This document shows, piece after piece, positions 1,864-55,053 of a DNA stretch of 55,053 nucleotides (the first letter of the stretch is position 1; each line of letters starts with the position of its first letter). The position numbers were made by a program, and so were the translations under genes. The stretch is from positions 1 through 55,053 of the forward strand of contig CAYPBP010000005.1 of assembly GCA_964408995.1 (NCBI GenBank), written 5' to 3'. The notes under the pieces are model-generated. The model worked only from the letters and a program-made list of their open reading frames with translations. It did no database searches and was not told where the DNA came from. Source of the stretch: an uncultured Gammaproteobacteria bacterium (GTDB taxonomy: Bacteria > Patescibacteriota > Microgenomatia > UBA12405).

Positions 1864-4290
1864 CTATAGCTTTATTACCAAGTTTACCATTTTACCTGGT
1901 ATATATATCTCTTTAACTATCTCTTTATCCCCTATCCAAGTCTTCATTTTTTCTGTTTCTTTAGCTAACTTCAAAACTTCATCTTTACTATCTTGCATAG
2001 TAGCATCAATTGAAATTTGATCTCTCACCTTTCCGTTAATAGATATTGCTACAGTCACTTTGTCTTCAATTAAATATTCCTTATCAGCCACTGGCCAAGC
2101 AGAAGTATGAACCGATCCTAAATTATAAACAGAATACAATTCTTCAGCCAAATATGGAGCAAATGGTGCTAATAGCTTTATTAAACTCTTTATATCCTCA
2201 TTTTCAACTTTATAACTTGATAAACTTGACAAACTGTTAAGGGTTTCCATCATCTTAGCAATAGCTGTGTTGTATTTAAAATTATCTAAATCGATAGTTA
2301 CTGCCATTATTAGCTTGTTGATTAGCAACTTAACTTCTTTACTGCTAGCAATAGTGTTACCGTCTTGCGATTTAATATACTTTTCAAACCTATCTAAGAA
2401 TCTTTTAACCCCCATTAGTGTCTTTTCATTCCAAGCCATAGTTGAATCAAATGGCCCCATAAACATTAAATACATTCTTATTACATCAACTCCATAAACA
2501 TCAGCTACTGTCTCAGGCACAATCACATTACCTTTAGATTTACTCATTCTTTGATTATCTGGACCCAAAATTACCCCATGGGATAATCTTTTATAGTATG
2601 GTTCAGGTAGTTCTCTAGGAACTGCTCCTAAATCCCACAAAAACTTATAAATGAACCTAGAATAAAGCAAATGAAGCACATTATGTTCATCCCCACCAAC
2701 ATAAACATCAACCGGACCCCAGTAATTAATTAAATCTTTATCAGCCAAACAAGTATCATTATGTGGATCCATATATCTCAAAAAATACCAATCACTACCT
2801 GCCCAGTTTGGCATAGTATCAGTTTCACGAGTCGCTTCTCCACCACAAACTGGACAAGTTGTTTTTACCCAATCTGTCATTTGTGATAATGGGCTTTTCC
2901 CATCATCAGTTGGTTCATAATTTTCCACCTCTGGTAATACTACTGGTAAATTCTCTTCTTTTTCTGACACCCAACCACATTTAGGACAATTAACCATTGG
3001 AATTGGCTCTCCCCAATAATGTTGTCTTGAAAATATCCAATCTCTTAAATGATAAGAAGCTGTTGCTTCTCCAATTTTTTGCTCTTTCAACCACTCATTC
3101 ATCTTTTTAAAAGCTTCAGCTGGTACCATTCCGTTTATCGGTGGTGAATTTATCATTTCACCATTATCAACATTCACATAAGCTTCTTTATCAAAATCGT
3201 GATCTTCTTTAGGTTGAATCACTGGAATTATTTCTAAACCAAATTTCTTTGCAAAAGCAAAATCACGCTCATCATGAGCTGGAACCGACATAATTGCCCC
3301 AGTTCCATAAGAAGCCAATACAAAATCAGAAATCCAAACAGGAATTTCTTTATTATTAACTGGATTAATCGCATATAATCCCAAGAACACTCCAGTTTTA
3401 TCTTTGGAAAGTTCCGTTCTTTCTAATTCACTCTTTTTTCTAGTATTAGCTATATATTCCTTAATTTCATCATTGTCTTTTGCCATATCCAAAGCTAATT
3501 GGTGCTCTGGAGCAATCACCATAAAAGTTGCTCCAAATAATGTATCTGGCCTAGTTGTAAATACCTCTAAGCTTTCATTTCTATCTTTAATTTTAAAATT
3601 AATTTTGGCACCTTCACTTTTACCAATCCAATTAATCTGTGCCTGTTTAACCTTATCAATAAAATTAGTCTTTTCTAATCCTTCAATTAACTTATCAGCA
3701 TATTCAGTAATTCTAACCACCCACTGACTTATATTTCTTCGACTAACCTCAGCTCCACATCTTTCACATTTTCCATCAACCACTTCTTCATTAGCTAAAC
3801 CAATCTTACAACTTGGACACCAATTAATTGGCATTTCTTTTTTGTAAGCTAATCCTTTTTTAAATAATTGAATAAAAATCCATTGAGTCCATTTATAATA
3901 ACTTGGATCTGTGGTATCAACTTCTCTACTCCAATCAAAAGAATAAGCCAACCTTTTCATTTGACTTCTAAACATATCTGTATTCTCGCGAGTCACTTCC
4001 TGAGGTTTCCTTTTCATCTTAATAGCATGATTTTCTGTTGGCAAACCAAAAGCATCCCAACCCATAGGAAATAAAACATTTTCACCCTGCATTCGCTTAA
4101 ATCGAGCATAAACATCTCCACCAGTAAAAGTAAAAGCATGACCAATATGAAGACCACTTCCACTTGGGTATGGAAATTCATTTAAAACATATTTCTTTTT
4201 CTTATTAGATTTATCATCGGCCTGATACATTTTAGGATTTTCTTCCCAAAATTTTTGCCATTTTTTTTCTATTTCTTTAAAATTTTCCAT
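1864..4290 (-). CDS. leuS: Leucyl-tRNA synthetase (likely start ATG 4290)
   Basis: EFPYPSG...HIGH, GWDAFGLP, CP1 editing motifs TTRPDT and GTGAIMSVPAHD, RMSKS; the track start at 4308 lies in the terminator U-tract. Confidence 0.97.
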   Translation of the reverse strand: MENFKEIEKKWQKFWEENPKMYQADDKSNKKKKYVLNEFPYPSGSGLHIGHAFTFTGGDVYARFKRMQGENVLFPMGWDAFGLPTENHAIKMKRKPQEVTRENTDMFRSQMKRLAYSFDWSREVDTTDPSYYKWTQWIFIQLFKKGLAYKKEMPINWCPSCKIGLANEEVVDGKCERCGAEVSRRNISQWVVRITEYADKLIEGLEKTNFIDKVKQAQINWIGKSEGAKINFKIKDRNESLEVFTTRPDTLFGATFMVIAPEHQLALDMAKDNDEIKEYIANTRKKSELERTELSKDKTGVFLGLYAINPVNNKEIPVWISDFVLASYGTGAIMSVPAHDERDFAFAKKFGLEIIPVIQPKEDHDFDKEAYVNVDNGEMINSPPINGMVPAEAFKKMNEWLKEQKIGEATASYHLRDWIFSRQHYWGEPIPMVNCPKCGWVSEKEENLPVVLPEVENYEPTDDGKSPLSQMTDWVKTTCPVCGGEATRETDTMPNWAGSDWYFLRYMDPHNDTCLADKDLINYWGPVDVYVGGDEHNVLHLLYSRFIYKFLWDLGAVPRELPEPYYKRLSHGVILGPDNQRMSKSKGNVIVPETVADVYGVDVIRMYLMFMGPFDSTMAWNEKTLMGVKRFLDRFEKYIKSQDGNTIASSKEVKLLINKLIMAVTIDLDNFKYNTAIAKMMETLNSLSSLSSYKVENEDIKSLIKLLAPFAPYLAEELYSVYNLGSVHTSAWPVADKEYLIEDKVTVAISINGKVRDQISIDATMQDSKDEVLKLAKETEKMKTWIGDKEIVKEIYIPGKMVNLVIKL

Positions 4291-20529: not shown

Positions 20530-20940
20530 ATGAATAAATATTTAGTTGTTATTATTTTTTTATCGATATCTTTAGTCGCCTCTCTTTCTTTGGTTTTAAA
20601 AACCACTGTTTTTGTCAACAAAGCTGCCAATGATAACCAATCTAGTGTTGCTCTTGAAAATTCTTATCTTTTTGTTTCCCCTCTTCAAGTTAAAGCTGAC
20701 AATAAAGAAAAAATGCGAGTTACTGTCTTTCTTCTAGATGGTCGTGGTCTTGGTGTTTCAAACCAAACTGTTGATATTTCCACTTCTAATAAAGTTAATA
20801 TTATAGAAGTTCAAAAAAATACTGATGAATCAGGTAAGGCTGTGTTTGATATCTCATCAGAAACTGCTGGTCAATTTAGTCTATCTGCTAAAAGTAATGG
20901 TAAAACCCTTCCTCAGCAAGTTAAAGTGGTCTTTTATTAA
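20530..20940 (+). CDS. Membrane-anchored Ig-like (Big-1/invasin-type) domain protein
   Basis: N-terminal TM; KADNKEKMRVTVFLLDGRGLGVSNQTV, TDESGKAVF. Confidence 0.75.
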   Translation: MNKYLVVIIFLSISLVASLSLVLKTTVFVNKAANDNQSSVALENSYLFVSPLQVKADNKEKMRVTVFLLDGRGLGVSNQTVDISTSNKVNIIEVQKNTDESGKAVFDISSETAGQFSLSAKSNGKTLPQQVKVVFY

Positions 20941-20995: not shown

Positions 20996-23584
20996 GTGGA
21001 TAAACTATCTTACAAAACTCTTCTCATCATTTTATTTTCTCTTTTAATCGCCATTGTTATCCTGCTAAGATTTTTTATCATCAAACCGAATTCCGCCGTT
21101 GCCGCTTGGTGGGATGATGCTTGGAGTTATCGAAAAAGTATTAGCGTTAATAATACTGACAATCAACAATCAAATGTTTATTTAACCGTTACCATTGACA
21201 CTTCTGATTCGTCTAAATTTCAAAGCGATTGTGGTGATATTCGTTTCACTGATCAAAATAATAATCTTTTAGATTATTTTATTGTTTCTGGTTGTGGTAG
21301 TGATTCAACTGTTATTCACGTTAATTTCCCCACTTTGATAGCTGGTAATAGCACTTTTTATCTTTATTATGGCAATTCATCAGCTCCAAACGGCTTCAGT
21401 TTATTTGATTTTGCCACTGCTGCTACTAATTCCACTCCCAGTTTAAATTCTGAAGAAACTTCCCCTACTCCAGCAATTTCACCAATAATTCTAGGTGGTC
21501 AAGCAGGCAACCCTACTCCAGCCCCACTTCCTTATGAGCCACTTATATATTATAAATTTGACGAAGGTTATGGAAATACTTTTAAAAATTATGGCAGTCT
21601 TGGAGAGTCTTTAAACGGTGTCTTTGGTACTGCTGGCACAATTCCAGCTTGGATAGATGGAAAATATAATAAAGGTTTAGATTTTGGTACTAGTTCAATT
21701 GCTATATCATCAAGAACTTCTTCTTTATTAGACTATAATGCCACCAATGGTCTAACTTTAAGTGCTTGGATAAAAGCTAGCCCAAACGAAACCAATGGTG
21801 GCCACATAATAAGTAAACCTTGGACTAGTGGCGGAGTTTACAACTATAGCTTGTTTTATAGTTCTACTAAAAGAATAACTTTTAATGTTAGAACAGCAGC
21901 TACCACCTACACTTTAACTACTGGAATCACCGTTCCGGCTGACCAATGGGCTTATGTAGCCGCCACTATAAATCCAGACACTCAAACTGCCAATATATAT
22001 ATCAATGGCGTAGGTATTACTTCAAGATCTGATATTTCAAATGATTTTAATATTACTAGTAATAATATAAAATTAGCTCTTGGATGTCTTTATCCTTATC
22101 CTAATTCTTGTCATCTTGCAACTTTTCAAAACTTTCTTGGCTCTATAGATGAAGTTAAAATCTACAATGTCGCCCTAACTGCTAATCAAATTCTTCAAGA
22201 TTATAGTTATAATCAAAATCAATTTAATACTAGTTTTGGTTCTTCTCTCCAAACTATCAGCAATGTCACCACTCCAATAGAATATTGTATTCCTGGTGAT
22301 ACTTCTTTTTGTATACCTCCTGTCATGGAATGGAATTTTGAAGAAGGATTTGGTGATGCTATAGTCGACAGTGGTAGTAATATTGGTAGTACTTTTGTGG
22401 GAACACCTGCTCGTGTAACTGGCAAAATTGGTCAAGCAATGAGTTTTGATGGTTCAACTAATGGCATAAAAATAAGTACCACCAACACTTATGTTGATGA
22501 AACTATGTCAGCTTGGGTTTATATTGACTCATCTTCACCCAGTGGAGACATTGTTGGCAATTGTCACACCAACATTAATAGTGGTTATGGATTTACATTT
22601 TATCTAGATGGTAACACTTTAAGAACTAAAGCTGGCACTAACAATAAATCAAATTTCTATAACAATATCACTTATGATGTAACCAATCAAAAAAACAAAT
22701 GGTTACATCTAACTATGAGTTGGGATAATCTAGGAACAGGCGCCACTGGATTAGCTAGTCCTCTTGGATGTGATACAACCGTAAAATTGTATGTTAATGG
22801 TCAATTAGTTGATGAACACACAGATAATTTAACCGCTACTACCGGTTACACCTGTACTAAAGCATATGACTACCCTTTTTCTATGGGTGGAACCCTAACT
22901 AGTTCATCAACTAGATTAACCAAAGTCAAACTCGACAATGTCAGAGTTTATAATTATGTTCGCACCCCTGCCCAAGTTGCCTACGACTATAACAAAGGAG
23001 GACCTGTTGGGTGGTGGAAACTCAACGAGTGTCAAGGTTCAACCGCTTTTGATTCATCTGGATTAGGCAATACTGGCATCATTTCAATAGGTCAAAATGG
23101 ATCACAAGATACTCTTGGAACCTGTCAAATTAGCACCTCAGCAGCTTGGAAAAATGGTGCTAGTGGTAAACTAAATTCTTCACTAAATTTTGATGGTACA
23201 GATGATTATATTAACCTAGGTAGTATTACCCCCAATGTTAATAGTGTTTCTTTTTGGACCAAACCATCATCTAATAACCAATATTTTCTCCAACTATCAA
23301 ATGATTCGTATATAACAATGTCATCTGGGACAATTTCTACCACTGGTTTTAGTTCAGCTACTATCTATATTAATGGTAAGACCACAAATCTTTTACCAGA
23401 TAACAACTGGCACCATATAACCATAGTTACCGATACAAATATTATCCCCCAAACAGTTTATATTGGAAAAGCTTATAGTAATTACTACTCTGGCCAACTA
23501 GACGATATTCGATTTTATAACTACCCTCTAACAATTGAACAAGTCAAAATCTTATACAACAACGGAGTAGCTAATTTTAATTAA
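20996..23584 (+). CDS. DUF2341-like plus three LamG/concanavalin-A-like domain surface protein
   Basis: WWDDAWSYRKSI, DCGDIRFTD; repeated YYKFDEG/WNFEEG/WWKLNE starts and GSIDEVKIYN/LDNVRVYN/LDDIRFYN ends. Confidence 0.85.
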   Translation: MDKLSYKTLLIILFSLLIAIVILLRFFIIKPNSAVAAWWDDAWSYRKSISVNNTDNQQSNVYLTVTIDTSDSSKFQSDCGDIRFTDQNNNLLDYFIVSGCGSDSTVIHVNFPTLIAGNSTFYLYYGNSSAPNGFSLFDFATAATNSTPSLNSEETSPTPAISPIILGGQAGNPTPAPLPYEPLIYYKFDEGYGNTFKNYGSLGESLNGVFGTAGTIPAWIDGKYNKGLDFGTSSIAISSRTSSLLDYNATNGLTLSAWIKASPNETNGGHIISKPWTSGGVYNYSLFYSSTKRITFNVRTAATTYTLTTGITVPADQWAYVAATINPDTQTANIYINGVGITSRSDISNDFNITSNNIKLALGCLYPYPNSCHLATFQNFLGSIDEVKIYNVALTANQILQDYSYNQNQFNTSFGSSLQTISNVTTPIEYCIPGDTSFCIPPVMEWNFEEGFGDAIVDSGSNIGSTFVGTPARVTGKIGQAMSFDGSTNGIKISTTNTYVDETMSAWVYIDSSSPSGDIVGNCHTNINSGYGFTFYLDGNTLRTKAGTNNKSNFYNNITYDVTNQKNKWLHLTMSWDNLGTGATGLASPLGCDTTVKLYVNGQLVDEHTDNLTATTGYTCTKAYDYPFSMGGTLTSSSTRLTKVKLDNVRVYNYVRTPAQVAYDYNKGGPVGWWKLNECQGSTAFDSSGLGNTGIISIGQNGSQDTLGTCQISTSAAWKNGASGKLNSSLNFDGTDDYINLGSITPNVNSVSFWTKPSSNNQYFLQLSNDSYITMSSGTISTTGFSSATIYINGKTTNLLPDNNWHHITIVTDTNIIPQTVYIGKAYSNYYSGQLDDIRFYNYPLTIEQVKILYNNGVANFN

Positions 23585-23587
23585 AAT

Positions 23588-24001
23588 CTATTTAAAAGTT
23601 ACTTTAATTATCTTTCCTATTACCATTCCACCCACACTAGCTGTTAATTCATATTGTTTTGCTTGAGCAGAAGTCATTTCAAATTTAGCTTTACCAGAAT
23701 CATTAGTCATTGCATCTTGATCACCTAAGCCGGTTAATTTAATTTGTTTATTAGCAACTCCCTTCCCTTTGCTATCTAAGGCAAACACATTAACCACACA
23801 TTTATCTTTTCCATCAGCTTTAGCTAATATTTTTTCACCTATTACAATAGAATTCTTAGCCGAAACCTTACTGGAACCACTAGCTTTAGTCAAAAGAATT
23901 AAAGTATTTGGGATAACGGCCACTGCTAAGTAAATTACTAAGCCCAAAACCAATAAAAGACCAATTCCACTAAAAATAATCTTGTTTTTATTACCATTCA
24001 T
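23588..24001 (-). CDS. Membrane-anchored Big-1-type domain protein, paralog of 20530-20940 (likely start 24001)
   Basis: KADGKDKCVVNVFALDSKGKGVANKQI, TNDSGKAKF. Confidence 0.75.
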   Translation of the reverse strand: MNGNKNKIIFSGIGLLLVLGLVIYLAVAVIPNTLILLTKASGSSKVSAKNSIVIGEKILAKADGKDKCVVNVFALDSKGKGVANKQIKLTGLGDQDAMTNDSGKAKFEMTSAQAKQYELTASVGGMVIGKIIKVTFK

Positions 24002-24630
24002 TAACAAATCATAGCACAAAAGCACCTTTTTTCAATAAATTAGCAATAAATTAAGGAAACTGCTAATAAAGATTTTGTTTAATAAAAAAGCTTAAAGTAG
24101 GCATTTATTACAAAAAATCAAAGCTAAAAAGGCCAAAATTTAACCTAAAAAATATTTAATCAACCCAAAATTAGGCAAAACAGAGCAAATAAATACCTTT
24201 TAATGCTTTGTCCTTCTTTGTATATCAAATAGTCTCAAATTATAACCGTAAATATTTTCCTCAAAAAAACAAATAACAAGCACTTTTTTAAAAAAAATAA
24301 AAAAAATTGAGTAATTTTTTAACAAAATTAAATCATCTTTATACCCAAAAAGTATATCAATTAATATCTTTTAAGATATACCGCATTTCTCCGCATCAAT
24401 TCCATTTTTAAAAATTAAAAATTGGATATTTAGAATTATTTTATATTAGATTGATAGTAGATGTACTAAGCGTGATAATCATCGTGAAAGTATAAGTTTT
24501 AAATTAGAAATAAGAAAAATTTTTACAAGATAGTATCAAAAAACATCATTAAAATGCTAAAAAATACCTATTGACAGCCTTTTTCTAATAGTAGATAGTT
24601 ATATTAATTAATTATTAATTTATATAAACA

Positions 24631-24759
24631 ATGTATAAAACATATAACTTTGAACCTAAATCTTTATCACCGCAGAAAAAATACCATTTTCAAAAAACAG
24701 CTGAAAGTTTAGTGCCCTTTTTAATCATTGCGGCCACCTTTGTTTGGCTTTGGAAATAA
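24631..24759 (+). CDS. Small tail-anchored membrane protein (42 aa), not in ORF track
   Basis: MYKTYNFEPKSLSPQKKYHFQKTAESLVPFLIIAATFVWLWK; ends 6 nt before next ATG; TTGACA at 24571. Confidence 0.6.
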   Translation: MYKTYNFEPKSLSPQKKYHFQKTAESLVPFLIIAATFVWLWK

Positions 24760-24765
24760 GTTTCT

Positions 24766-25209
24766 ATGACTGCCCAAATCTTTGAATCCTACCAAAACTG
24801 GCTTAAAGCAAGATCTTATTCCAGTGCCACCATTAGAAACTACTTAGTTGACCTTAGAAAATACTTTCTTTTCACTAATCGAGATTCAGACGAGATATCA
24901 GATAACATTTTCAATTCAGACAATTTAAGCTCTTACTTTCAAAACATTAACCAAGACCAAAATTATAAACGTTTTTTAGCTTCGCTCTCTAAATTCTTTC
25001 AGTTTGCCTTAGATCAAAAACTAATTTCCAAAAGTCCTTTCAAAGAAGCTCTAAAAAATAATCAAGAAATAAAAGGCCATGATATTCCATCGGCTATAAA
25101 TTTATATAAACAACAGCTTGTTGCTAAAAAATCATCTCCATCAACTATACGAAACTATATCAACGACATTCATCAATTTATTAATTGGGCTTCAAGTGAA
25201 CCTAAATAA
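24766..25209 (+). CDS. Integrase core-binding (SAM-like) domain protein, 1.5 domains, no catalytic domain
   Basis: WLKARSYSSATIRNYLVDLRKY...KRFLASLSKFFQF...SPF, then QLVAKKSSPSTIRNYINDIHQFINW. Confidence 0.8.
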   Translation: MTAQIFESYQNWLKARSYSSATIRNYLVDLRKYFLFTNRDSDEISDNIFNSDNLSSYFQNINQDQNYKRFLASLSKFFQFALDQKLISKSPFKEALKNNQEIKGHDIPSAINLYKQQLVAKKSSPSTIRNYINDIHQFINWASSEPK

Positions 25210-28200
25210 TCTATTTACTACTTCTCGTCTAAACGAATATACTGCTTTCTTAAAAAGCACCAATCTTTCTGATGCCAGTCTTAAACGTAAGCTTTCTTCT
25301 CTTTCTTCTTTTCAAAAATTTTTAGTTAAAAAGAAACTAATTCAACCTGATTCAAACCCACTCACCTTCCAAACACCTTCTTTTAGCAACGAGACTATAA
25401 AAAAAAACATTGAAAACTCTATAAACCAACCTGAATTAAAAGCTAATTTTTTAAAAAAAATAATTTCCCGTTTCATACCAGATACTAAATACTTAATACC
25501 AAATACTAAACCAAACAATTTCTTATTCCGTTACATAACCATTTTCTCTCTTTTTGCTATTGGCGTTGGTCTTGGCTTCACTCTCTATCAACAAGCCTTT
25601 ATTCAATCAAATAAAAATCTAGCTTATTCAAATGCCAATAATCCAGTCAAAGCTGGTCGTTTTCTTTCCTTTCAAGGCCGTTTAACTGACTCTAGTGGTA
25701 ATCCTATTGTTGCAGAAACTGAGATCTATTTTCAACTTTGGAATAAAGATATTGGGGGTACTATGCTTTACACCACACTAGACAATGGTAACAGTCAAAC
25801 TGTTATCCCCGACGAAAATGGTATCTTTTCCATCACTATTGGTAAAAGTCATGGACCAGAAATACCTGCTGATGTATTTTCTGAAAATGCCGAAATTTGG
25901 TTGGAAATTACTGTTGACGATGAAACAATGGAACCTCGCCAACCTATTGCTACTGTTGCCTATGCTCTCAATGCTGAAACCTTGCAAGGTTTACCACCAG
26001 ATGCTGGCGGTTATAAAGATACAGTGCTAGTTATAGATTCCGAAGGTAACTTAAACTTAGGAGAAACTTCTCCTACTATCAAATCTATATCTGGGACCAT
26101 GGGTATTGAAGGTCAAGCTATTCTTATTAAATCTTCTGAAGGTTCTGGTGGCAATATTGATATTAATCCAGATGGTCAAGGTATAGTTCAGTTAATTAAC
26201 GAAGCTAGTGATGGTAGCCTTGTTGTTAGTAATACAAATTTAATAATGGGTAATCTTATTACTGGTCAAGTTAATACCGAAGAACGTGGCTATAATTTCA
26301 TCGATTTTCAAAATAAAGATGCTTTTGGTGATTTAACTAGTCGTTTCTCTGTCAATTCCTATGGTGATGCTTATATAGACAATGATTTAACTGTATCAAA
26401 CAACGCTGATATTGGTGGTAGCCTTTCTGTAAGTGATTATTCTATTTTTTCTAAAGGTATCGGTATCACTGGCAATTCTGCTTTTAATAATAATCTTTCT
26501 ATTGGTGGGACTTTAACTTTATCTCAAAATCCTGGAGCTGGTAAAATTCTTCAATCAGATGCTTTTGGTAATGCTTCTTGGGTTGACAATAACGGCAGTG
26601 GTGTAGGTGTTAGTTATTTTTCTGGATCAGGTTTAACTTTAAATAATGATACTTTCAAACTAGGCGGTGCCTTAACTGAAAATATGCGTCTTAATATTGG
26701 AAACACAGAAGCTTTTTATATTCAAAATTCAACTGGTAATATCGGTCTTGGTACCACTAATCCCACAGCAAAGCTTAGTGTAGTTGGTGATATTGGAGCT
26801 AATCAACTCAACATCACCACCTCAGGTGAAACTTTTGGACCTGGTACTATTATTTACTCAGCTAACTCCAACTTATCGGGTTCCATAAATACTGGCGATT
26901 TTAATAATGATGGTAAAACAGATTTAATTATTAACGATCAATATTTTTACAGGGTTAGAGTTTTTACTGGTAATGGTGATGGTACTTATCAAAATAGTAC
27001 TATTCATCAAACTAATGATATTAGTTATTTTGATCCATCATCAATAACTATCGCTGACTTCAATAATGATAATTATGACGACTTTGCTATTACTAGTAGT
27101 AATTATAGTGATCAAATTATTGTCTTTATTAATAATCAAAATAGTGATTTTGATTCTGGAACTAGTTATTTGGTTGATGGCTATTCATCTTCCATTAATA
27201 GTGGTGATTTTAATGGTGATGGATTTATTGACTTATTAACTAATAATCCAGACAGTAATAACATTAGTGTTTTTCTTAATAATAATGGTACTTTTGGAAC
27301 GGGTGTTACTTATTTCAGTGATACTTATGTATATAATACTGAAATTAGTGATTTTAATAGTGATGGTAAAGACGATTTAATTTATTTAGATGGTTATTCA
27401 GGTGACTTAACTGTAGTTCTTAGTAATAATGGCACTTTTGGAACTGGTGTTACTTATCCAACAAATAATTATGGAGATATTGAAATTAATGATTTTAATT
27501 TTGATGGTAAAAACGATTTTGTCGTTTATGATGGGTATTCTTTAGATGTTTATCTTAATAACAATGGTACTTTTAATAAAAGTACTTTTAATATTTCAAC
27601 AAGTGGTGTATCTCAAATTAATAGTGGTGATTTTAATGGTGATGATTATCCTGATTTAGTCACTAATACAGATTCCAACAACATTGCTGTTTTAATTAAT
27701 AATAATGGCACTTTTGAAAGTAATATTTACTATCCAACTAATGGAGATATATCAACTTCTATCACCACCGGTGATTTTGATAGTGATAATAAAGACGAAA
27801 TAGTATCAATCAATGGTAATACTAAAGTCAGTTTTTTTAATGAAAGACCAAACATATCTATCATTACTGATAATATTGGTAACATTGGTATTGGAACTAC
27901 TTCTAACTCTTTATATAAACTAACTGTTGTTGGTGATGCATTATTTTCTAATAAACTTTCAATTGGCGGTACTCTTTCAGCTAATTATATTTCATCTACC
28001 AATATTTACAATACCAACTCTGTATCCACCAGTAGTCTTTATACTACTTCTTTTAGACTTGCTAATAATGTTCATAATGGATATATTTTAACGAGTGATG
28101 TTTGGGGTAATGGCATTTGGACTGCCCCTTCAACTATTGGTACCAATTATGTTGCTGGCAACGGTATTACTATTAATAGTAGTAACCAATTTAAGCTTGG

Positions 28201-31200
28201 TGGTAGATTAACTGAAAATACTTCTATTGGTGTTTCTTCGTTTGGATTGTCTTTTCTAGGCCTAGGTAATACCCAAGCACTTTATATTGCTTCTACCGGG
28301 AGGATTGGTATTGGCACCACTAGCCCAAGTTATAAGCTTCATGTTATTGGTAATGGTTATTTTTCTACGAATCTTTCAGTTGGCGGAACTTTAACCCTAA
28401 CTCAAGGCGCTGGAGCTAATAAAATTCTTCAATCAGATGCTTCTGGTAATGCTTCTTGGGTTTCCCCTTCAAGTATTGGTACTACTTATGTCGCTGGAAA
28501 TGGTATTACTCTTAATAGCAGTAATCAATTTAAACTAGGTGGTAACTTAATTGAAAATACTTCTATTGGTATTTCGTCCTCTTATTTAAGATTTACTGCT
28601 GGTAATGGTAGTACTGAAGCCCTTTATATTTCTAATACCAGCAGAGTTGGTATTGGCACCACTAATCCTCTCTCTAAATTAAGTGTAGTTGGTTCTATTT
28701 CTGGTGATAACCTAGTTCTAGCTGGTAATGTTCAATTGAACAGTTTTGCTGGTTTTAATAATTACTTAGATAGCTCTGGCGGTCTTGGTACTGGTGGTAT
28801 TCAAAGAATAACTAGTACTGGTAATTTAACTAATATTAGCTCTATCCAAGCTGGACAACTTAATATTACTTCTGATTTTAATTTTAGTATTGGAACCAGT
28901 TACCCCATAAATATAGGAAGTTCTGAACCATCTTCTATAACTTCTGCTGATTTTAATGGTGATGGTAAACCTGATTTAGCTACCGCTAATGGTGGAAGTG
29001 ATAATATTACTATTTTTATTAATAACGGAAATGGTGCTTATAGTACTGGCGTTGATTACTCTAATAATATTGGAAGTCACCCATGGTCTATAACTTCCGC
29101 TGATTTCAATAGTGATGGTAAACCTGATTTAGCTACCGCTAATGGTGGAAAAGGAAATATCACAATATTTACCAACAATGGAGATGGAACTTTTGGAACT
29201 GGCATTACTACTCGCGCCCCATCCTATTCAAATTGGCATCGTTCCATAATTTCGGCTGATTTCAATAGTGATGGTAAACCTGATTTAGCTACCGCTAATA
29301 CTGGTGACAATAAAATAAATGTCTATCTAAATAATGGCAATGGTAATTTTATAAATAGCACTAATTATTCGGTTCCTTGCCAAGACCCATCTTCTATAAC
29401 TTCTGCTGATTTCAATGGTGATGGTAAACCTGATTTAGTTACTTACGAACAAGAGCACTCTACCCTTTGTGTTCTAACTAATAATGGTGGTAATTCCTTT
29501 ATAGGTACCACCAATCCTCAACCGGACATTGGTTATTCGCAAAATAATATTATTTCTACTGATTTTAATGGTGATAGTAAAACTGATTTAATAGTTACCT
29601 CCCATAAATATGATGGTGGTAATACGACAACCATGGTAAATATTTTAAATGGTATCGGTAATAGTACTTTTGGAGTTGGTGCTAGTTATCAAATGTCTCT
29701 AGATTCGTATACATATAACAATAGTATAACTACTAATGATTTCAACGGTGATGGTAAACCTGACATAGCTACTCAAAAAATGACTTGGGATGAAAATAAT
29801 TATTGGAGCTACAATACAGTTATTATCCCTAATAATGGTGATAATACTTTTGGTCTTGGCATTACTTATCCATCAACATATGGATGGCAAAATTCCATTA
29901 TTTCGAATGATTTTAATAGTGATGGTAAAGACGATTTAGCATATATAAGTGGTTCCACCATTAACGTTAATCTGAATAATTCTAACCCAACTCTTTTCAC
30001 TTCAATTTCGGGAAATGTCGGCATCGGCACTAGTAATCCTTTATCTAAACTAAGTGTTATCGGCGACGCTTCAATTTCAAGCAATCTTTCAGTCGGTGGA
30101 TCTTTAACATTAACTCAAGGAGCTCAGGAAGGATATATTTTAACTAGCGATTCAAACGGTAATGCCTATTGGGCTATAAGTGGCAGTGGTGGAATTGGTA
30201 CTGTCAATAATGGTCTTACTTTGTCTAATTATCAACTTCAATTAGGAGGTAATTTAATTCAAAATACATCAATTGGTGTTTCATCATTTGGACTATCATT
30301 TTTAAGTTCAGGCGATACTCAAGCACTTTATATTGCTTCTAATGGCAGCATTGGTATCGGTACCACCAACCCAACAGCAAAACTAAGTGTTGTTGGCAAC
30401 GCTTATTTTGCCGATAATGTCGATCTTGGTACTACTAATCAAACAGCAAAATTAGAAATAACAGGCAATATTAAGATTAACTCGATTAGTCATACATTAG
30501 ATACCGGAACCACTTATCCAGAAAATAATGATTATGGTAGGCCATGGGGTATCACTTCCGCCGATTTTAATGGTGATAATAAAATTGACATAGCTACTGT
30601 TGACCGCAGTCAACATAAATTTTTTATTTTTAATAACACCAACAATGGCAACTTTGATGTTGGTGCCAGTTATTATGTAGAATCGCCAACTTCCATCACT
30701 ACTGGTAATTTTAATAATGATGATAAACCTGATTTAGCCATAGTTAGTTGGCAAACTATTGGTGTTTTTACAAATGATGGCAGTGGTAATTTTGACACTG
30801 GCACAACTTATCCTAGTCATACATATGCATATAATAATAAAATTATAACCGCCGATTTTAATAATGATAGTAAAGATGATATAGCCGTTTCCTCCTACAA
30901 TGGTGACAGTTTTGAAATTTTTACAAATGATGGCAGTGGTAATTTTGGCACTGGCATAACTTATCCATCAACATCAGTAAGATCTATCGCTTCTGACGAT
31001 CTTGATGGTGATGGTAAAAAAGATTTAGTAACTTTTAATAACGGTTATATCACTATTTTTACAAATGATGGCAGTGGTAATTTTGACACTGGCACAACTT
31101 ATTCTGGATCTGGAGGAGCAACTAATTTTAACGGTTCACCAATGGCAATTGCCGATTTTAATAATGATAGTTTTAAGGATATAGCAACTTTAAATAATGA

Positions 31201-34200
31201 CTTATTTATTTTTACAAATGATGGCAGTGGTAATTTTGGCACTGGTGTAAGTTCCCCAGTTAATGCTGGAGCAGGTGATGGTATGGTTGCCACTGATCTT
31301 GATGGCGATGGCAGAATTGATTTAGTATCTACTGACAATAACAATCAAATAAACTTTTTAAAAAATAATGGTAACCATTCTTTTTCTAAAGATAGCAGCT
31401 ATCAAACTATAGAAAACAGACCAATTGATATTACTTCTGCTGACTTTAATAACGATGGTTTTAACGATATAGCTACTGCCAATGTCTGGGGTAAAGGTAT
31501 AACAGTTTTTCTAAATAAAATTGACGGCATTAACCCAACTTTTTTTACTAGTAATGGTGGTTTTGTTGGCATCGGCACCACCAATCCTACCCAAAAATTA
31601 GATATTGTTGGTGATATTAATCTAACTGGTACTATATTTGCCAATAATACTTCTGGCTCTAATGGACAAATTTTAAGTTCTACTGGAATTGGTTTATCTT
31701 GGATTAACCCTAGTTCTGTCGGTACCACCTATACTGCTGGAATTGGGTTAAGTTTAGCCAATAATACATTTCATCTTAATTTAGCTTCAACTAACACATG
31801 GACTGGCATTCAAAACTTTTCTACTGGAGCTACCATTTCCAGTCTTTCTGTTGGAGGTACCTTATCAGTTACTGGTAACTCTACTTTTACCAACAATCTT
31901 TCGGTTGGAGGTACCTTATCAGTTACTGGTCGTTCTACTTTTTCTAATGGTATTGGAATTACTGGTAACTCTACTTTTACTAACAATCTTTCGGTTGGTA
32001 ATACTTTGTTTGTCAATAGTAAATTAAAAATATATAATGGCGGAGTTAATACTAACAATTATGTTTTAACAAGTGATAATAATGGCAATGCCACTTGGAA
32101 ACAAAATATTCCTGTTCTTTACACCTCTTCCAATGGTATTACTCTTTCTGGTACTGAATTTAAACTTGGTGGTAGATTAACTGAAAATACTTCTATTAAT
32201 GTTTCTTCATCTTTTCTAAGATTTACTGCTGGTAATGGTAGTACTGAAGCACTTTACATTGCTAATACCGGTAGAATAGGTCTTGGTACCACTAGTCCAA
32301 GTAAAAAATTAGATGTTGTTGGCGATATTAATCTTAGTGGTACTATTTTTGCTACTGGAACTTCTGGATCTAATGGACAAGTATTAACTTCCACCGGTGC
32401 TGGTTTAGCTTGGATAGATTCTGCTGCTATTGGCACAAGTTTCTCTGTTACAAATGGTTTATCAAGTATATCAAACAATGTCTTTGGTCTTGGCGGCACT
32501 TTAACTCAAAATACTTCTATTGGTGTTTCATCATCTTTTCTAAAATTTACTGCTGGTAATGGTAGTACTGAAGCACTTTACATTGCTAATACCGGTAGAA
32601 TAGGTCTTGGTACCACTAGTCCAAGTAAAAAATTAGATGTTGTTGGCGATATTAATCTTAGTGGTACTATTTTTGCTACTGGAACTTCTGGATCTAATGG
32701 ACAAGTATTAACTTCCACCGGTGCTGGTTTAGCTTGGATAGATTCTGCTGCTATTGGCACAAGTTTCTCTGTTACAAATGGTTTATCAAGTATATCAAAC
32801 AATGTCTTTGGTCTTGGCGGCACTTTAACTCAAAATACTTCTATTGGTGTTTCATCATCTTACTTAAGATTTACTGCTGGTAGTAATACAGAATCTCTTT
32901 ATATTTCTAATACCGGTAGAGTCGGTATTGGTACCGCTAGTCCAAGCCAAAAACTTCATGTTATTGGTGATGCTTATTTTGCCAGTAATGTTGGTTTTGG
33001 AGTAGCTAGTCCTACCAAAAAAATTGATGTTGCCGGTGATATTAAATTAACCGGGAAACTCTTTGTTGGTTCGGCTGGTACTTCTGGTTCTGATAATCAA
33101 GTATTAATTACTAGTGGTGATAGCCTAAATTGGGTAGATGCAAGTTCAATCAATCAACCATTATCTTTTATGAATGGTTTATCAGAAATATCAACTAATA
33201 CTATTGGTCTTGGCGGTACCTTAACTAAAACTACTTCAGTTGGAACTTCATCTTTTGATTTATTTTTTCTAGATTCTAGCAATAATAAATCACTTTATAT
33301 TGCTTCTAATGGCAACATCGGTATTGGTAATACCACCAGTCAAAGCTTCAAACTTCATGTTACAGGTGACACTTTGATTGACGGTATCACTCAATTAAAT
33401 GGTAATGTTGGAGTTAGAGATAATCTTGCTGTTGGCAGCTTAACTATGAATTACGGATCCAGCAGTGGTTATATTTTAACCAGTGATAGCATTGGTAATG
33501 CTTCTTGGATTGCTCCTAATTCTATTGGTATCGGTACTAGTTATGCTGCTGGTAATGGTTTGAATATATCTAACAACCAATTTAAACTTGGTGGTAACTT
33601 AACTGAAGCTACTTCAATTGGAATTTCTTCATCATCGTTAAGATTTACTGCTGGTAATGGAAGTACTGAAGCACTTTATATTGCTTCTGATGGAAAAATT
33701 GGTATTGGTACAACTGCTCCAACTTCAAAATTAACAGTTATTGGTGGTGCTTCAATATCAACCAATCTAACCATTGGTGGTAGTTTAGTTTCTGTTGGTT
33801 CAACTAATTTAGTTACCAATCTTAATGCTCAATACCTTGGTGGTATTGGTGCTTCTGAATTTGTTGGTATAGGTCAAACTGGTGATTTCATTACTACTTT
33901 AACTAATGGAATTGGTATCACTATTACTGGATCAGGTGTTAGTCGAAATATTACTTTTGATTATGATTCTTCTCTATTAGCTACTGGTAATAAAATTGGA
34001 CTTAATCTTGGTTCTTCTAATACTTGGACTGGTCTTCAAAGTTTTAACAATATTAACATCGGCGGAACTCTAACTCTGGGTGTCGGCGCTAGTGCTGGTT
34101 ATGTTTTAACTAGTGATGAAAGTGGTAATGCTTACTGGGCATTTAACCCTGATACCGATACCACCTACACTGCTGGAAATGGTATCACTCTTGTTGGAAC

Positions 34201-37200
34201 TCAAATTAAACTTGGTGGAACATTAACTGAAAATACCTCTATTAGTCTTTCATCATTTGGATTATCTTTCTTAGGTTTAGGTAATACTCAATCACTTTAT
34301 ATTGCTTCAAGTGGTTATGTTGGTATTGGTACCACAAATCCTTCAGCTAAACTTACTATCAAAGGAGATTCTAACCAATCCACTTCCGATTTTACTTTAC
34401 TAAATGGTGATGACACTATTGGTTTAGAAATAAGGGCTGGAAATACCAATAAAGGTAATATCTTTATTGGTAAAGATGTTGGAAATTCGACAGTTGATTT
34501 TTATTCAAGTAACAACACTGCCATAGGAAATCAATCTTTTTATAAAAATACCTATGGAAATAGCAACACTGCTTTAGGCAATCAATCTCTTTATAGTAAT
34601 GTAAATGGAGATAGCAACACCGCACTAGGAAATAGTTCTCTCTATAATAATACCTATGGAAGTAAAAACATTGCTTTGGGCAGTGAATCTCTTTATAGTA
34701 ATATTGGTGGAGACAAGAATATTGCTTTAGGCAATCAATCTCTTTATAGTAATATAAATGGAGATAGCAACCTCGCACTAGGAATCAAATCTCTTTATAA
34801 TAATATCAGCGGAAATCAAAATATAGCTATAGGAGAGCTTTCTCTTGAAGAGAATATCAGCGGAAATAACAACATTGCTATAGGAATAGGTTCTCTTAAG
34901 AGAAATACCATTGGAAATAAAAATATTGCCATAGGAAATGGAACTCTTGTTGGTAATACTAGTGGGAATAGTAATATTGCCATAGGAACTGGATCTCTTG
35001 TTGGTAATACTAGTGGGAATAGTAATATTGCCATAGGAACTGGATCTCTTATGAATAATGCAGAAGGATCTGAAAATACTGCTTTCGGTAATTATTCACT
35101 TACTAATAATACTATTGGAGAACTTAATACTGCTATGGGCAGTGGATCTCTTGGTGGTAATATTACTGGAACATATAATACTGCTATAGGTGGTTATTCT
35201 CTTACGACAAACATTGGTGGAACTCAAAACACCGCCATAGGAACTGGATCTCTTATGAATAATGCAAATGGATCTGATAATACTGCTGTAGGAGCTATGT
35301 CTCTTTTAAACATTACAACTGGATCTAATAATACTGTTTTAGGATCTAACAGTCTTTTAAATGGAACAAATCTTAATTCTAATATTGCCATTGGTTATCA
35401 AGCTGGTTATTTATTGGGGATTGGCTCTAGTAATATTTTTATTGGTAATGATATTGGTGCTTCAGGTGATTACGATAATAGTCTTTACATCGGTCATGGT
35501 ACTAACCCAATTATTTTTGGTAATTTAGCTAATGGTAATATCGGTATTGGTACTACTAATCCTTCCAAAAAGTTAGACGTTATTGGCGATGCTTCAATAT
35601 CAACCAATCTAACCATTGGTGGTAGTTTAGTTTCTGTTGGATCAACTAATCTAGTTACCAATCTTAATGCTCAATACCTTGGTGGTATTGGTGCTTCTGA
35701 ATTTGTTGGTATAGGTCAAACTGCTCCTTTCATTTATACTGCCACTAATGGTCTAACCCTAGCTTCTAATCAGTTTAAACTCGGTGGAGAATTAACTGAA
35801 ACTACTAGGTTAAATATTGGCTCAACTGAAGTTCTATATATATCTTCTACTGGTCTCATTGGTATCGGTACTACTAATCCAACAAATACTTTAAAAGTAT
35901 TTAACTCAACTGCTGGCATTGAATCTGCTCCTCTAATTGTTCAACAAGGTATTGCTTACGCTAGTCCTTATACCCAATATATTCAAACATGGAAAAATAG
36001 CGCTGGAACAAACGTTGCTCATATGAGAGCTGACGGATCTTTAACTACAAATAATAATAAATCAACAATATATCAAGCAACAGGCACTGGTTCAACTACA
36101 ATTCCAGTTTTTTCAAATAGTAGCGCAAATGCTGGTATCTATTTTCCATCAACAACTAACTTGGGTTTTGTCACTAATAGAACTGAGAGAATGAAAATAA
36201 CTGATACTGGCCTCATTGGTATTGGTACCACTAATCCAATTTACAAACTTGATGTCATTGGTGATGCTTCAATATCAACCAATCTAACCATTGGTGGTAG
36301 TTTAGTTTCTGTTGGTTCAACTAATTTAGTTACCAATCTTAATGCTCAATATCTAGGTGGTATTGGTGCTTCTGGATTTGTTGGTATAGGTCAAACTGGT
36401 GATTTTATTACTACTTTAACTAATGGAGTTGGTATTACTATTACTGGATCAGGTGTTAGTCGAAATATTACTTTTGATTATGATTCTTCTTTATTGGCTA
36501 CTGATAACAAAATAGGTCTTAACTTAGCTTCCAATAATATCTGGACTGCACTTCAAACATTTACTAATGGTATTGGTGTTAGTGGTGATGCTAACTTTAC
36601 TAATAATCTAACCATTGGTGGTACTTTAGTTTCTGTTGGATCAACTAATCTAGTTACCAATCTTAATGCTCAATACCTTGGTGGTATTGGTGCTTCTGAA
36701 TTTGTTGGTATAGGTCAAACTGGTGATTTCATTACTACTTTAACTAATGGAATTGGTATCACTATTACTGGATCAGGTGTTAGTCGAAATATTGCTTTTG
36801 ATTATAATACTTCTTTATTGGCTACTGATAATAAAATAGGTCTTAACTTAGCTTCCAATAATATCTGGACTGGACTTCAAACATTTACTAATGGTATTGG
36901 AGTTAGTGGTGATGCTAATTTAACTAACAATCTAACCATTGGTGGTACTTTAGTTTCTGTTGGATCAACTAATCTAGTTACCAATCTTAATGCTCAATAC
37001 CTTGGTGGTATTGGTGCTTCTGGATTCGTTGGTATTGGTCAAACTGGAGATTTCATCACTAGTCTTAGTGTTGGTGGCAGTGGTTTATCTATTGAAGGTA
37101 GTGGAATTGGTAGAACTCTTACTAACACTGGATTAGTTGATATTACCAACACTACTCTTATCCGTAGTGGTTCTGATGGTAACTATACTGTTGGTCTTAA

Positions 37201-39670: not shown

Positions 39671-40408
39671 TTATTGTGCTAATAACCCAAAATTGTCCAA
39701 ACACCCATTAGAGACAATAATACCCGTCGATCCTGTTCTTATCCCTGTTGAGATGTTTCGAACCACCTTGGTATTATTAAAATAAATACTTATAGTTCCG
39801 GCAACATCTGCCACAACTTTAAGTTGATACCACTTATCGCTATCAAATGTACGTCTATTGCCAGTGTAATACGTAACCCCTTCAATCACTTCTTCCATTT
39901 GAACACTATCATTGTCTGGATAAGCTTTTATCATGATATAGTTTTGTGGACTTTCATACCACAAAACTACTCCAGCATACCCACCATCCATTACATTGAA
40001 ATCAACCTTAACTGTTTGGTTTGACGCCTGAACATCATTCAATAATAACATCCCCAATTCAAGATTTTTTTGCTTCAATACACCATCTTCAATTAACCAA
40101 TTTCCAGAAACGCTATTCCACTTTGACAAATTACCAGAAAATTCATCCGATTCAAGAATATTTAAACCAGCTGCATTTTGCAAAGTAATCAAAGCATCAA
40201 TCGAATTAATAGAACCATTAAAGTCAGTATCATAACGCCATAAATCTTCACTAGCCGGAGGACCTACTAAACCAGCTGCATTTTGCAAAGTAATCAAAGC
40301 ATCAACCGAATTAACCATTCCATTTTTATTTACATCTCCAAGACCACCATTATCACCTAAAGCTCTAGTCTCAAAAGCTCCTACATTTAAAGACATAGTA
40401 GTTGCCAA
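39671..40408 (-). CDS. Dockerin-like tandem repeat plus beta-sandwich (LamG/DUF1080-like) protein; start uncertain
   Basis: GDVNKNGMVNSVDALITLQ and DTDFNGSINSIDALITLQ (37-bp identical DNA); DEFSGNLSKW...GNW...GSTGI. Confidence 0.8.
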   Translation of the reverse strand: MATTMSLNVGAFETRALGDNGGLGDVNKNGMVNSVDALITLQNAAGLVGPPASEDLWRYDTDFNGSINSIDALITLQNAAGLNILESDEFSGNLSKWNSVSGNWLIEDGVLKQKNLELGMLLLNDVQASNQTVKVDFNVMDGGYAGVVLWYESPQNYIMIKAYPDNDSVQMEEVIEGVTYYTGNRRTFDSDKWYQLKVVADVAGTISIYFNNTKVVRNISTGIRTGSTGIIVSNGCLDNFGLLAQ

Positions 40409-54583: not shown

Positions 54584-54707
54584 GAATTCTGGCCACGACC
54601 TATTTTCAAGATCCCTTACGGGAAGACTATTGTCGGCGCTAAAGAGTTTCACTTCTCTGTTCGAAATGGGAAGAGGTGGTGCCACTTCGCTCCAATGACC
54701 AGAGTTC
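54584..54707 (-). rRNA. rrf: 5S rRNA
   Basis: Helix I GAACTCTGGTC/GGCCAGAATTC, CACCTCTTCCCATTTCGAACAGAGAAGTGAAA, GAAAATAGG. Confidence 0.95.
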
Positions 54708-54869
54708 AAAAACTAAATCGAATTTTTGTAATTTAATTAAAATTTCTTGTTTTTATAATCGACGACCTAAAATCTACGATCTAATAACTTTTTTCTTGGC
54801 CTCTAAATTGAGTTGCCCTATTCAGCTTCCAATCCCGAATTTTGATCGAGACTGAAAGCCAAACATATT

Positions 54870-55053
54870 GAAAAAGTTTCTTTAATCTTCTCTTTACTTA
54901 GCTTAAATTCTTTCAAATCTTCCACTTGTAAAGTATTAACCGGTAGTCTCCCGGCGATTTCTCATCCCGACAAGTCGGGACAACGATTCCTTATCTTGGG
55001 GTCAGTTTCCTGTTTGAGATGCTTTCAACAGTTATCTTATAGAAACGTAGCTA
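54870..55053 (-). rRNA. rrl: 23S rRNA, 3' end (3' boundary approximate; truncated by window)
   Basis: TAGCTACG...GATAACTGTTGAAAGCATCT...GAAAC...CCCAAGATAAG, matching the conserved 3' region of 23S. Confidence 0.93.

Follow-up and report, generated by a model that had tools for sequence, protein, structure and literature searches.

Organization of the locus

The subject of this analysis is a pair of overlapping genes, between which a small helical domain related to the core-binding domains of tyrosine recombinases is divided. The genes lie on a 55,053-nt stretch of DNA, referred to here as the window (contig CAYPBP010000005.1 of GenBank assembly GCA_964408995.1, deposited as an uncultured Gammaproteobacteria bacterium and placed by GTDB in the Patescibacteriota, Microgenomatia, UBA12405). 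Genes and domains are on the forward strand unless marked (−). The upstream gene, open reading frame 1 (ORF1; 24766–25209), encodes a soluble protein of 147 amino acids (aa) that has neither a signal peptide nor a membrane helix and that ends in ...FINWASSEPK* (...SPSTIRNYINDIHQFINWASSEPK*), with a TAA stop at 25207–25209. The downstream gene, referred to here as the giant gene (25196–39475), encodes a protein of 4,759 aa that is predicted to be a type II membrane protein with a tail-fibre-like extracellular part.

The frame of the giant gene is open from 25118 to 39475, lies at +1 relative to ORF1 (25118 − 24766 = 352 = 3 × 117 + 1) and reads ...LQ VNLNNLFTTSRLNEYTAFLKSTNLSDASLKRKLSSLSSFQKFL / ...LIGLQVNLNNLFTTSRLNEYTAFLKSTNLSDASLKRKLSSLSSFQKFLVKKK across the ORF1 stop. 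The start of the giant gene was assigned by homology to the GTG at 25196, which gives a 14-nt overlap with ORF1 (25196–25209), a putative site of translational coupling. Within this overlap, GTG AAC CTA AAT AAT in the giant frame coincides with CCT AAA TAA in the ORF1 frame. The ORF1 stop falls where it does because the AAT AAx codons of the conserved giant N terminus, (M/L/V)NLNN(L/Y)F, read TAA in the frame of ORF1. A TTG at 25118 or 25121 was considered as the giant start and rejected, as the open stretch upstream of 25196 is not conserved and is closed by stops in most relatives.

A core-binding domain is divided between two proteins

Profile searches establish what the two sides of the junction encode. 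ORF1 alone matches Phage_int_SAM_1 (PF02899) at aa 7–85 (profile positions 2–83 of 83, E = 1.2 × 10−12; Pfam), which corresponds to a complete core-binding (SAM-like) domain 1 at 24784–25020. It then matches only the first half of Phage_int_SAM_4, at aa 116–146 (profile 7–38 of 85), and aa 8–47 of the giant protein match only the second half of Phage_int_SAM_1 (profile 44–83 of 83, E = 5 × 10−4). When ORF1 and the giant N terminus are joined artificially, the second domain is found at full length (aa 111–191 of the join, profile 1–83 of 83, 65.7 bits, E = 4.6 × 10−18). Complementary halves of one profile flanking a change of frame are far beyond what chance would give.

A structural model is consistent with this assignment. 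We used AlphaFold2 to predict the direct join of ORF1 and the giant N terminus as a single chain, with 29 relatives as the alignment, and obtained a mean predicted local distance difference test score (pLDDT) of 81.8. Domain 1 (residues 2–83) is modelled with helices at 2–15, 20–37, 46–61 and 67–83 (pLDDT 85–98, with 73 in the loop at 41–50). The core-binding-like domain 2 takes helices 1 and 2 from ORF1 (aa 107–142, encoded at 25084–25191; modelled at 107–120 and 125–142, pLDDT 95–97) and helices 3 and 4 from the giant protein (aa 9–45, ...YTAFLKSTNLSDASLKRKLSSLSSFQKFLVK, encoded at 25220–25330; modelled at 153–165 and 170–189 in the numbering of the join, pLDDT 92–96), and block means are 92–97 on all four helices. 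The joined halves are thus modelled as two XerD-like four-helix domains. A Foldseek search of this model against the PDB returned, as its top matches, the N-terminal domains of XerD (1a0p), integron integrase (2a3v), lambda Int and XerA, together with several isolated core-binding domains (identifiers among these matches are 1a0p, 2a3v, 5hxy, 1z19 and 3nrw). The matches have a probability of about 1 and a root-mean-square deviation of 2.2–3.7 Å over 80–98 columns, with weak E values, as expected for an 80-residue helical domain within a 316-residue query.

An initial annotation of the locus, made from the DNA letters and translations alone, had described the overlapping codons at the junction, a full core-binding domain followed by helices 1 and 2 of a second in ORF1, helices 3 and 4 at the beginning of the giant frame, the lack of a catalytic R-H-R-Y domain and a membrane helix that follows the half-domain. 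All of these descriptions agree with the window and with the profile and model results, and the fused form, which it had proposed for modelling, is predicted to adopt the core-binding fold. We found no match to the catalytic Phage_integrase domain (PF00589; R-K-H-R-H/W-Y) in ORF1, in the join or in the 4,759-aa giant protein, and no catalytic recombinase domain anywhere in the operon. The NCBIfam XerC/XerD models are matched over only their N-terminal ~95 residues (model positions ~2–99 of ~295), at 36–40 bits for ORF1 and 17–20 bits for the giant N terminus, relative to a cut-off of ~330. As the catalytic domain is missing, these proteins are not recombinases and catalyse no recombination, and the name 'site-specific integrase' that databases give them is misleading.

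The module nevertheless resembles the core-binding domains of tyrosine recombinases (XerC/XerD, XerA, integron integrases and lambda Int; PF02899, PF13495 and PF13102) in sequence family (Pfam recombinase-family E values of 1 × 10−12 to 5 × 10−18) and in its four-helix fold, as recovered by Foldseek. It differs from them in that no catalytic domain is attached, the domain occurs in tandem, it is tethered by a giant fibre and, in the clade described below, it is divided between two polypeptides. Its NCBIfam scores (20–50 bits) also fall well short of the XerC/XerD thresholds.

The division is shared by a clade of relatives

To place the junction in context, we searched for protein relatives with the joined N terminus as the query and found 70, almost all from metagenome-assembled genomes (MAGs) of Patescibacteria/Microgenomates (Shapirobacteria, Woesebacteria and others); those that carry a name are called 'hypothetical' or 'site-specific integrase, partial'. 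The closest of them start exactly where the giant ORF of the window begins. We also derived two peptide patterns from the conserved extracellular module, and a scan of species-representative genomes with them yielded 412 loci. The best 80 of these, together with 2 from exact look-ups, formed the set in which junctions were compared. Relatives are denoted below by L (locus) and P (protein) numbers.

Among the closest 80 species-level loci, 48 distinct loci are split in the domain 2 loop between helices 2 and 3. The frame of the giant gene relative to ORF1 is +1 in 37 of the 48 (the window included), +2 in 7 (L001, L010, L014, L017, L026, L048 and L051) and 0 in 4. Three of the frame-0 loci (L003–L005) have an in-frame TGA followed 5–6 codons later by an ATG; a tblastn-based label of 'fused' for these was rejected, as the alignments simply run across the TGA. 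The fourth (L041) has an intergenic spacer with several stops. True intergenic spacers, which reach ~50–80 nt and include stops, are present in L010, L045 and L041, and L002 has a 4-nt gap before the start codon. Distant relatives (for example, P0002, P0013, P0017 and P0028) have both domains, the membrane helix and the beginning of the fibre in one chain, and the fused single-frame relatives comprise P0002/L006, L049–L082, P0013, P0017, P0028 and others. A comparison of orthologues had been suggested in the initial annotation; it shows that the loop in which the break lies is constant, that the frame relation is not, and that distant relatives are fused in one frame.

We constructed a simple neighbour-joining tree from ~180 columns of the conserved extracellular module, in which all split loci group together as a single clade, with fused loci as its outgroups. 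A single true in-frame fusion, L006 (= P0002), has a shortened junction (...YIIWFKDEKSDTNNNYSDFLQS) and is nested within the split clade. It also keeps a small upstream ORF that is specific to the clade (see below) and is most simply explained by secondary re-fusion.

These comparisons bear directly on the possibility that an assembly or sequencing indel, or a recent pseudogenizing mutation, broke a gene that is truly fused. A single-base indel within ~25190–25209 would indeed restore one frame, and the distant relatives and L006 are fused. The same split, however, recurs in 48 independent assemblies from different studies, the junction of the window is nearly codon-for-codon equal to those of L007 and L001, and the relatives have a conserved start codon and purifying selection on both parts (see below). 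The artefact that the initial annotation had allowed for is therefore excluded, and we regard a broken gene as the least credible of the explanations considered.

The junction itself varies in length. Several ORF1 proteins have long inserts after helix 2 (L009, L020, L022, L024 and L046/47). A GC-rich palindromic element (for example, ccctgtcaagggagatgtcacgaagtgacagaggg) is present at the ORF1/giant junction of L003 (~3440–3480), L004, L005, L009, L020, L022 and L024, where it translates as ...GRSPATAGQRG... or ...RPVKGDVTK*; the genomes are otherwise AT-rich, and the element resembles a small repeat that is mobile or able to form a hairpin. Tandem GAAATTA/GAAATTG heptamers are found at the junctions of L002 (~2960–3020), L010 (~3480–3540) and L045 (~3430–3480), and also in the upstream regions of L010 and L017; these are possibly slippage-prone tracts that could alter spacing or frame. 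The junction thus accepts insertions, as a spacer or a surface loop would.

Many of the MAGs that contain these relatives are titled 'uncultured Gammaproteobacteria' or 'Pseudomonadales' (L009–L014, L018, L020–L024 and others), and single ones 'Methanoperedens', 'Balneolaceae' or 'Vitreimonas'. Their loci cluster with those of Shapirobacteria and Woesebacteria, and the titles probably reflect placeholder names or mis-binning.

The giant gene has its own start codon

A further question is whether ribosomes reach the giant frame by initiating anew or by shifting frame. We counted start codons, last codons and Shine–Dalgarno motifs in 45 aligned split loci. The aligned first codon of the giant gene is ATG in 17, TTG in 15, GTG in 8 and CTG in 5, and is thus NTG in 45 of 45; it is located six to seven codons ahead of a conserved F-N-Q-S motif. 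Such codons are otherwise infrequent in the same genes, in which ATG, GTG and TTG together make up 1.4% of codons, TTG accounts for 5.7% of Leu codons and GTG for 7.8% of Val codons. Alternation of a residue between M, V and L through NTG codons only is characteristic of a start codon. A stop 1–3 codons ahead of this NTG closes the giant frame in many loci and leaves no room for a shift further upstream. The giant start lies 8–17 nt upstream of the ORF1 stop in 33 of the 45 loci, and 1–17 nt upstream, counted to the first base of the stop, in 37.

The alternative is a programmed +1 frameshift at CCT AAA TAA, raised in the initial annotation, which would join ORF1 and the giant protein into one chain of ~4,900 aa. 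The window is consistent with such a shift in that the relation is +1 and no stop interrupts the giant frame over the 89 nt that precede the ORF1 stop; furthermore, 37 of the 48 split relatives are also +1, and five relatives have only a CTG at the start position. The excess of +1 relations is, however, accounted for by inheritance from a single fission event, and seven relatives are +2, while four are in frame but interrupted by stops or a spacer (L003–L005 and L041). Spacers separate the ORF1 stop from the start of the giant frame in L010 and L045, and L002 has its 4-nt gap. The codon that precedes the ORF1 stop takes 16 forms among the 45 junctions (AAT, TCT, AAC, AAA, CAA, ACT and others), without any logic of re-pairing, and both the closure of the giant frame just ahead of the NTG and the switching of the residue at that position exactly as start codons do argue against a shift. 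The comparisons largely refute the frameshift, and we consider it very improbable.

The arrangement invites comparison with prfB, which encodes release factor 2: in both, the upstream ORF ends at a stop and the downstream +1 frame is already open across the junction. Unlike prfB, the locus described here has no conserved shift site or frame relation, selection maintains a separate start codon for the giant gene, and spacers occur in some relatives. It therefore works differently, and the resemblance to prfB is superficial.

Selection on both halves and proposed reassembly in trans

Both sides of the break are under purifying selection. Pairwise ratios of nonsynonymous to synonymous substitution rates (dN/dS) are mostly 0.03–0.3 for domain 1 of ORF1, for the ORF1 half-domain and for the giant half-domain, with similar values for the extracellular module; in most pairs, the ratio for the giant half-domain is 0.0–0.2. 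In an alignment of 30 split loci, the invariant residues are L118, T127, Y131 and D134 of ORF1 and R31, K32, S34, F39 and L43 of the giant protein. In alignments that combine split and fused relatives, Y131, D134 and R31 likewise do not vary, and S34 hardly does. A four-helix bundle cut in half would probably be neither stable nor selectable, and because both halves are conserved, completion of the domain in trans by the two chains is the best reading of these data.

The locus records a stable and ancient fission of a gene within a domain, and we propose that the two resulting genes are translationally coupled and that the domain is reassembled from the two chains. From the comparative evidence, we give this reading a probability of roughly three in four. 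Completion by two chains was among the options of the initial annotation, and the comparisons favour two chains; their reassembly into one domain is the part that we infer. Several points weigh against the proposal. A Shine–Dalgarno-like motif before the giant start was not found in 31 of the 45 loci, and CTG, a poor initiator, occupies the start position in five, so that coupled initiation is a suggestion from the layout of the genes. The binding of the ORF1 protein to the giant chain and the cytoplasmic (N-in) location of the module are predictions from sequence, and the clade structure comes from the simple tree of ~180 columns described above.

It could also be that the fission is real but that the halves no longer reassemble. 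ORF1 would then be a free one-domain protein with a remnant tail, and the helices at the N terminus of the giant protein would serve another role or none. The long inserts after helix 2 in some ORF1 proteins would fit such a divergence, and physical interaction of the chains is likewise a prediction. Nevertheless, both half-domains are conserved to the same degree as the intact domain 1 (dN/dS of 0.0–0.3), neither side of the break has lost the residues common to the split clade and fused relatives, and the helix 4 positions F39 and L43 are invariant in the split clade. In addition, two helices of a four-helix bundle would hardly be stable alone, the adjacency of the genes and the overlap of stop and start are preserved across the clade, and one nested lineage has re-fused both parts into a working single chain. 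On balance, we find divergence of the halves unlikely.

The reassembly model can be outlined as a sequence of steps. The ancestral protein was a single chain with two core-binding domains, a linker, one membrane helix and a very long tail-fibre-like part, an arrangement that persists in distant Microgenomates. In the clade of the window, the gene broke between helices 2 and 3 of domain 2, at a surface loop. Ribosomes that finish ORF1 may then re-initiate at the nearby weak start of the giant gene, so that both chains would be made from one mRNA, in the same place and in roughly matched amounts. Short-range re-initiation after termination is established in bacteria. ORF1 could dock its two helices on the first ~45 residues of the nascent giant protein before the signal anchor inserts, and the four-helix domain would thus be rebuilt on the cytoplasmic face of the membrane, with the fibre projecting outwards as an attachment organelle.

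The reduced genomes of symbionts such as Nanoarchaeum equitans have split genes, in which fission has left overlapping stops and starts. By analogy, the ORFs described here are adjacent, on the same strand and collinear with one fused gene in relatives, which would represent the single ancestral gene; they share a short stop–start overlap, and both are under selection. The differences are that the break falls within a small four-helix domain rather than between domains and that it parts a 147-aa soluble protein from a 4,759-aa membrane protein.

A giant membrane-anchored fibre

The half-domain of the giant protein is followed by a single hydrophobic helix (aa 109–134, FLFRYITIFSLFAIGVGLGFTLYQQA; 25520–25597), predicted to be a signal anchor and modelled by AlphaFold2 as a helix at 253–278 of the join. 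A hydrophobic stretch is kept at this position in all relatives. As there is no signal peptide in ORF1 or in the giant protein and no membrane helix in ORF1, the core-binding-like module should lie in the cytoplasm and the fibre outside the cell. Core-binding-type domains that lack an accompanying catalytic domain and sit on the predicted cytoplasmic side of a giant fibre, which the initial annotation had proposed for this single locus, are in fact widespread, and in distant relatives they are fused in one frame.

Just outside the membrane is the most conserved module of the family (RFLSFQGRLTD ... PRQPIATVAYALNAETLQG; 25658–25999), which is recognizable by its invariant columns. The giant protein also has 14 FG-GAP_3 and 7 FG-GAP stretches (E = 5.6 × 10−93 and E = 8.2 × 10−61, respectively; Pfam), some of the best of which are at aa 1246–1415 (28931–29440). 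Towards the C terminus is a Peptidase_S74 domain, an intramolecular chaperone of the endosialidase or tail-spike type (aa 4230–4284, 37883–38047; PF13884, E = 6 × 10−14), which is followed by ~475 further residues. The C-terminal chaperone domain indicates that the fibre is probably a trimer. A sequence search of the PDB with the first 1,000 residues of the giant protein returned no match, and the Peptidase_S74 region weakly matches the distal subunit of the phage S16 long tail fibre (6f45, E = 1.8 × 10−4). Motifs of the type NADxLDG, which we take to be a tail-fibre motif, occur in relatives. By sequence, the extracellular part is probably a trimeric attachment fibre, with cell–cell attachment as its likely role.

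The giant gene lies within a cluster of genes for surface proteins. These encode small Big_1/Invasin_D3 proteins (20530–20940 (+) and 23588–24025 (−)), an 862-aa Laminin_G_3/DUF2341 protein (20996–23584) and a protein with dockerin and 3-keto-disaccharide-hydrolase-like regions (39671–40408 (−)). The Big_1 and Laminin_G_3 neighbours are syntenic in L001 and L002. Neighbours of these kinds fit an attachment fibre.

The fibre resembles phage tail fibres and tailspikes in having a Peptidase_S74 domain in its extracellular part, as well as in the weak match to a phage long tail fibre. A possible kinship with the mosaic adhesive trimer (MAT) fibres of Bdellovibrio (PMC10769870) is suggested by one relative only, P0002, the conserved module of which weakly matches the NCBIfam model Bdello_MAT_N (NF053851; E = 3.8 × 10−5, 23.5 bits relative to a cut-off of 60). 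The giant protein of the window has no match to the N-terminal MAT model at E ≤ 0.01, and we treat the kinship as a weak lead that falls below the model cut-off. In contrast to tail fibres and MAT fibres, the giant protein has an N-terminal membrane-helix anchor and a large cytoplasmic domain, is ~4,760 aa long and extends ~475 residues beyond the Peptidase_S74 domain.

Two known kinds of element are involved here, namely a gene fission within a domain and a giant fibre adhesin anchored in the membrane; the recombinase domain that has been recruited is unusual and apparently undescribed. Proteins with this architecture, in which tandem core-binding-like domains precede one membrane helix and a giant tail-fibre-like part, are common in Microgenomates and are annotated as 'integrase'. 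Full-text literature searches returned no account of Patescibacteria in which domains of this type are attached to giant membrane fibres. The analysis corrects an annotation, in that hundreds of Microgenomates genes named 'site-specific integrase' encode the predicted cytoplasmic ends of giant surface fibres without recombinase activity. A DNA-binding domain of recombinases has been recruited to an entirely different setting, the predicted inner face of the membrane beneath an attachment fibre, in ultra-small and probably host-dependent bacteria whose machinery for cell–cell contact is almost unknown. The locus also offers a clean natural case of a small helical domain that has been kept split over a long evolutionary time, with one natural re-fusion. 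As such, it may inform studies of domain fission, co-translational assembly and translational coupling at weak start codons.

Possible functions of the cytoplasmic module

The cytoplasmic module is basic: the median isoelectric point of ORF1 orthologues is 9.3, and the first 48 residues of the giant protein have a net charge of +6. DNA binding is suggested by this charge together with family membership, although a basic charge would also be expected of any membrane-proximal cytoplasmic tail. The proposal of the initial annotation that the fibre connects the attachment site to the chromosome or to incoming DNA is accordingly a hypothesis. We hold, weakly, that the basic tandem module either has nucleic acid as its ligand or serves in the cytoplasm as a platform on which the fibre base docks.

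A more specific proposal is that the module is a true DNA-binding device, tethered to the base of a fibre that attaches the cell to its host, and that ORF1 is a subunit able to detach from it. From sequence we consider this doubtful. Completion of the domain by ORF1 at the membrane would then depend on the state of the fibre, be it host contact, tension or shedding, and cell–cell attachment would be coupled to DNA. The target could be the operator-like blocks at 24353–24599 (see below), which would provide a ToxR-like route of signalling from fibre to gene. Another candidate target is DNA, chromosomal or incoming, that an epibiotic bacterium would hold where it attaches.

ToxR, CadC and TcpP are membrane-tethered DNA-binding regulators. 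The analogy with them lies in a cytoplasmic domain of a nucleic-acid-binding type, one membrane helix and an extracytoplasmic part. The DNA-binding fold is a different one, and the extracellular part is ~20 times larger here.

Upstream region and operon

A small ORF of 42 aa (24631–24759; MYKTYNFEPKSLSPQKKYHFQKTAESLVPFLIIAATFVWLWK) with a C-terminal hydrophobic helix ends 6 nt before the ATG of ORF1; it is too short for the default length threshold of the ORF list. By tblastn, it is kept directly upstream of ORF1 in essentially all loci of the split clade and in the re-fused L006, and it has a possible weak counterpart in the fused L075. Relatives differ from one another mainly at third codon positions. 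The small ORF has no match in Pfam or NCBIfam and is probably the third gene of the operon. The locus would then constitute a defined three-gene operon (small membrane peptide, ORF1 and giant fibre) with a highly conserved control region.

A promoter scan identified a promoter-like site of the sigma-70 type at 24571–24599 (TTGACA, 17 nt, GATAGT). Although their proteins share only 45–70% identity with those of the window, 16 of 17 aligned loci keep the promoter-like block aTTGACAgcctttttctaatagtagata almost unchanged. Further conserved non-coding blocks in this alignment occupy 24353–24550 (tATATCAaTTAATATC, CCGCAtnTCTCCGCA, GATAGTA..CGTG(N9)GTGAAA and TAcTATCAAAAnanATCA). The ~250 bp of non-coding DNA at 24353–24599 is unusually conserved as a whole and contains, besides the promoter-like block, a near-palindrome, ATATCAATTAATAT, together with CCGCAnnTCTCCGCA, GATAGTA..CGTG-N9-GTGAAA and TACTATCAAAA. 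An RNA stem formed by GATAGTA and TACTATC was considered for this region and rejected, as relatives have no compensating changes and the window has GATAGTA at both places.

Rfam has no match at or near the junction or in the upstream region, and no tRNA genes were found in the 55-kb window. The only Rfam matches in the window are to 5S and 23S rRNA at its end, where a 5S rRNA gene and the 3′ end of a 23S rRNA gene are located at 54587–55053 (−).

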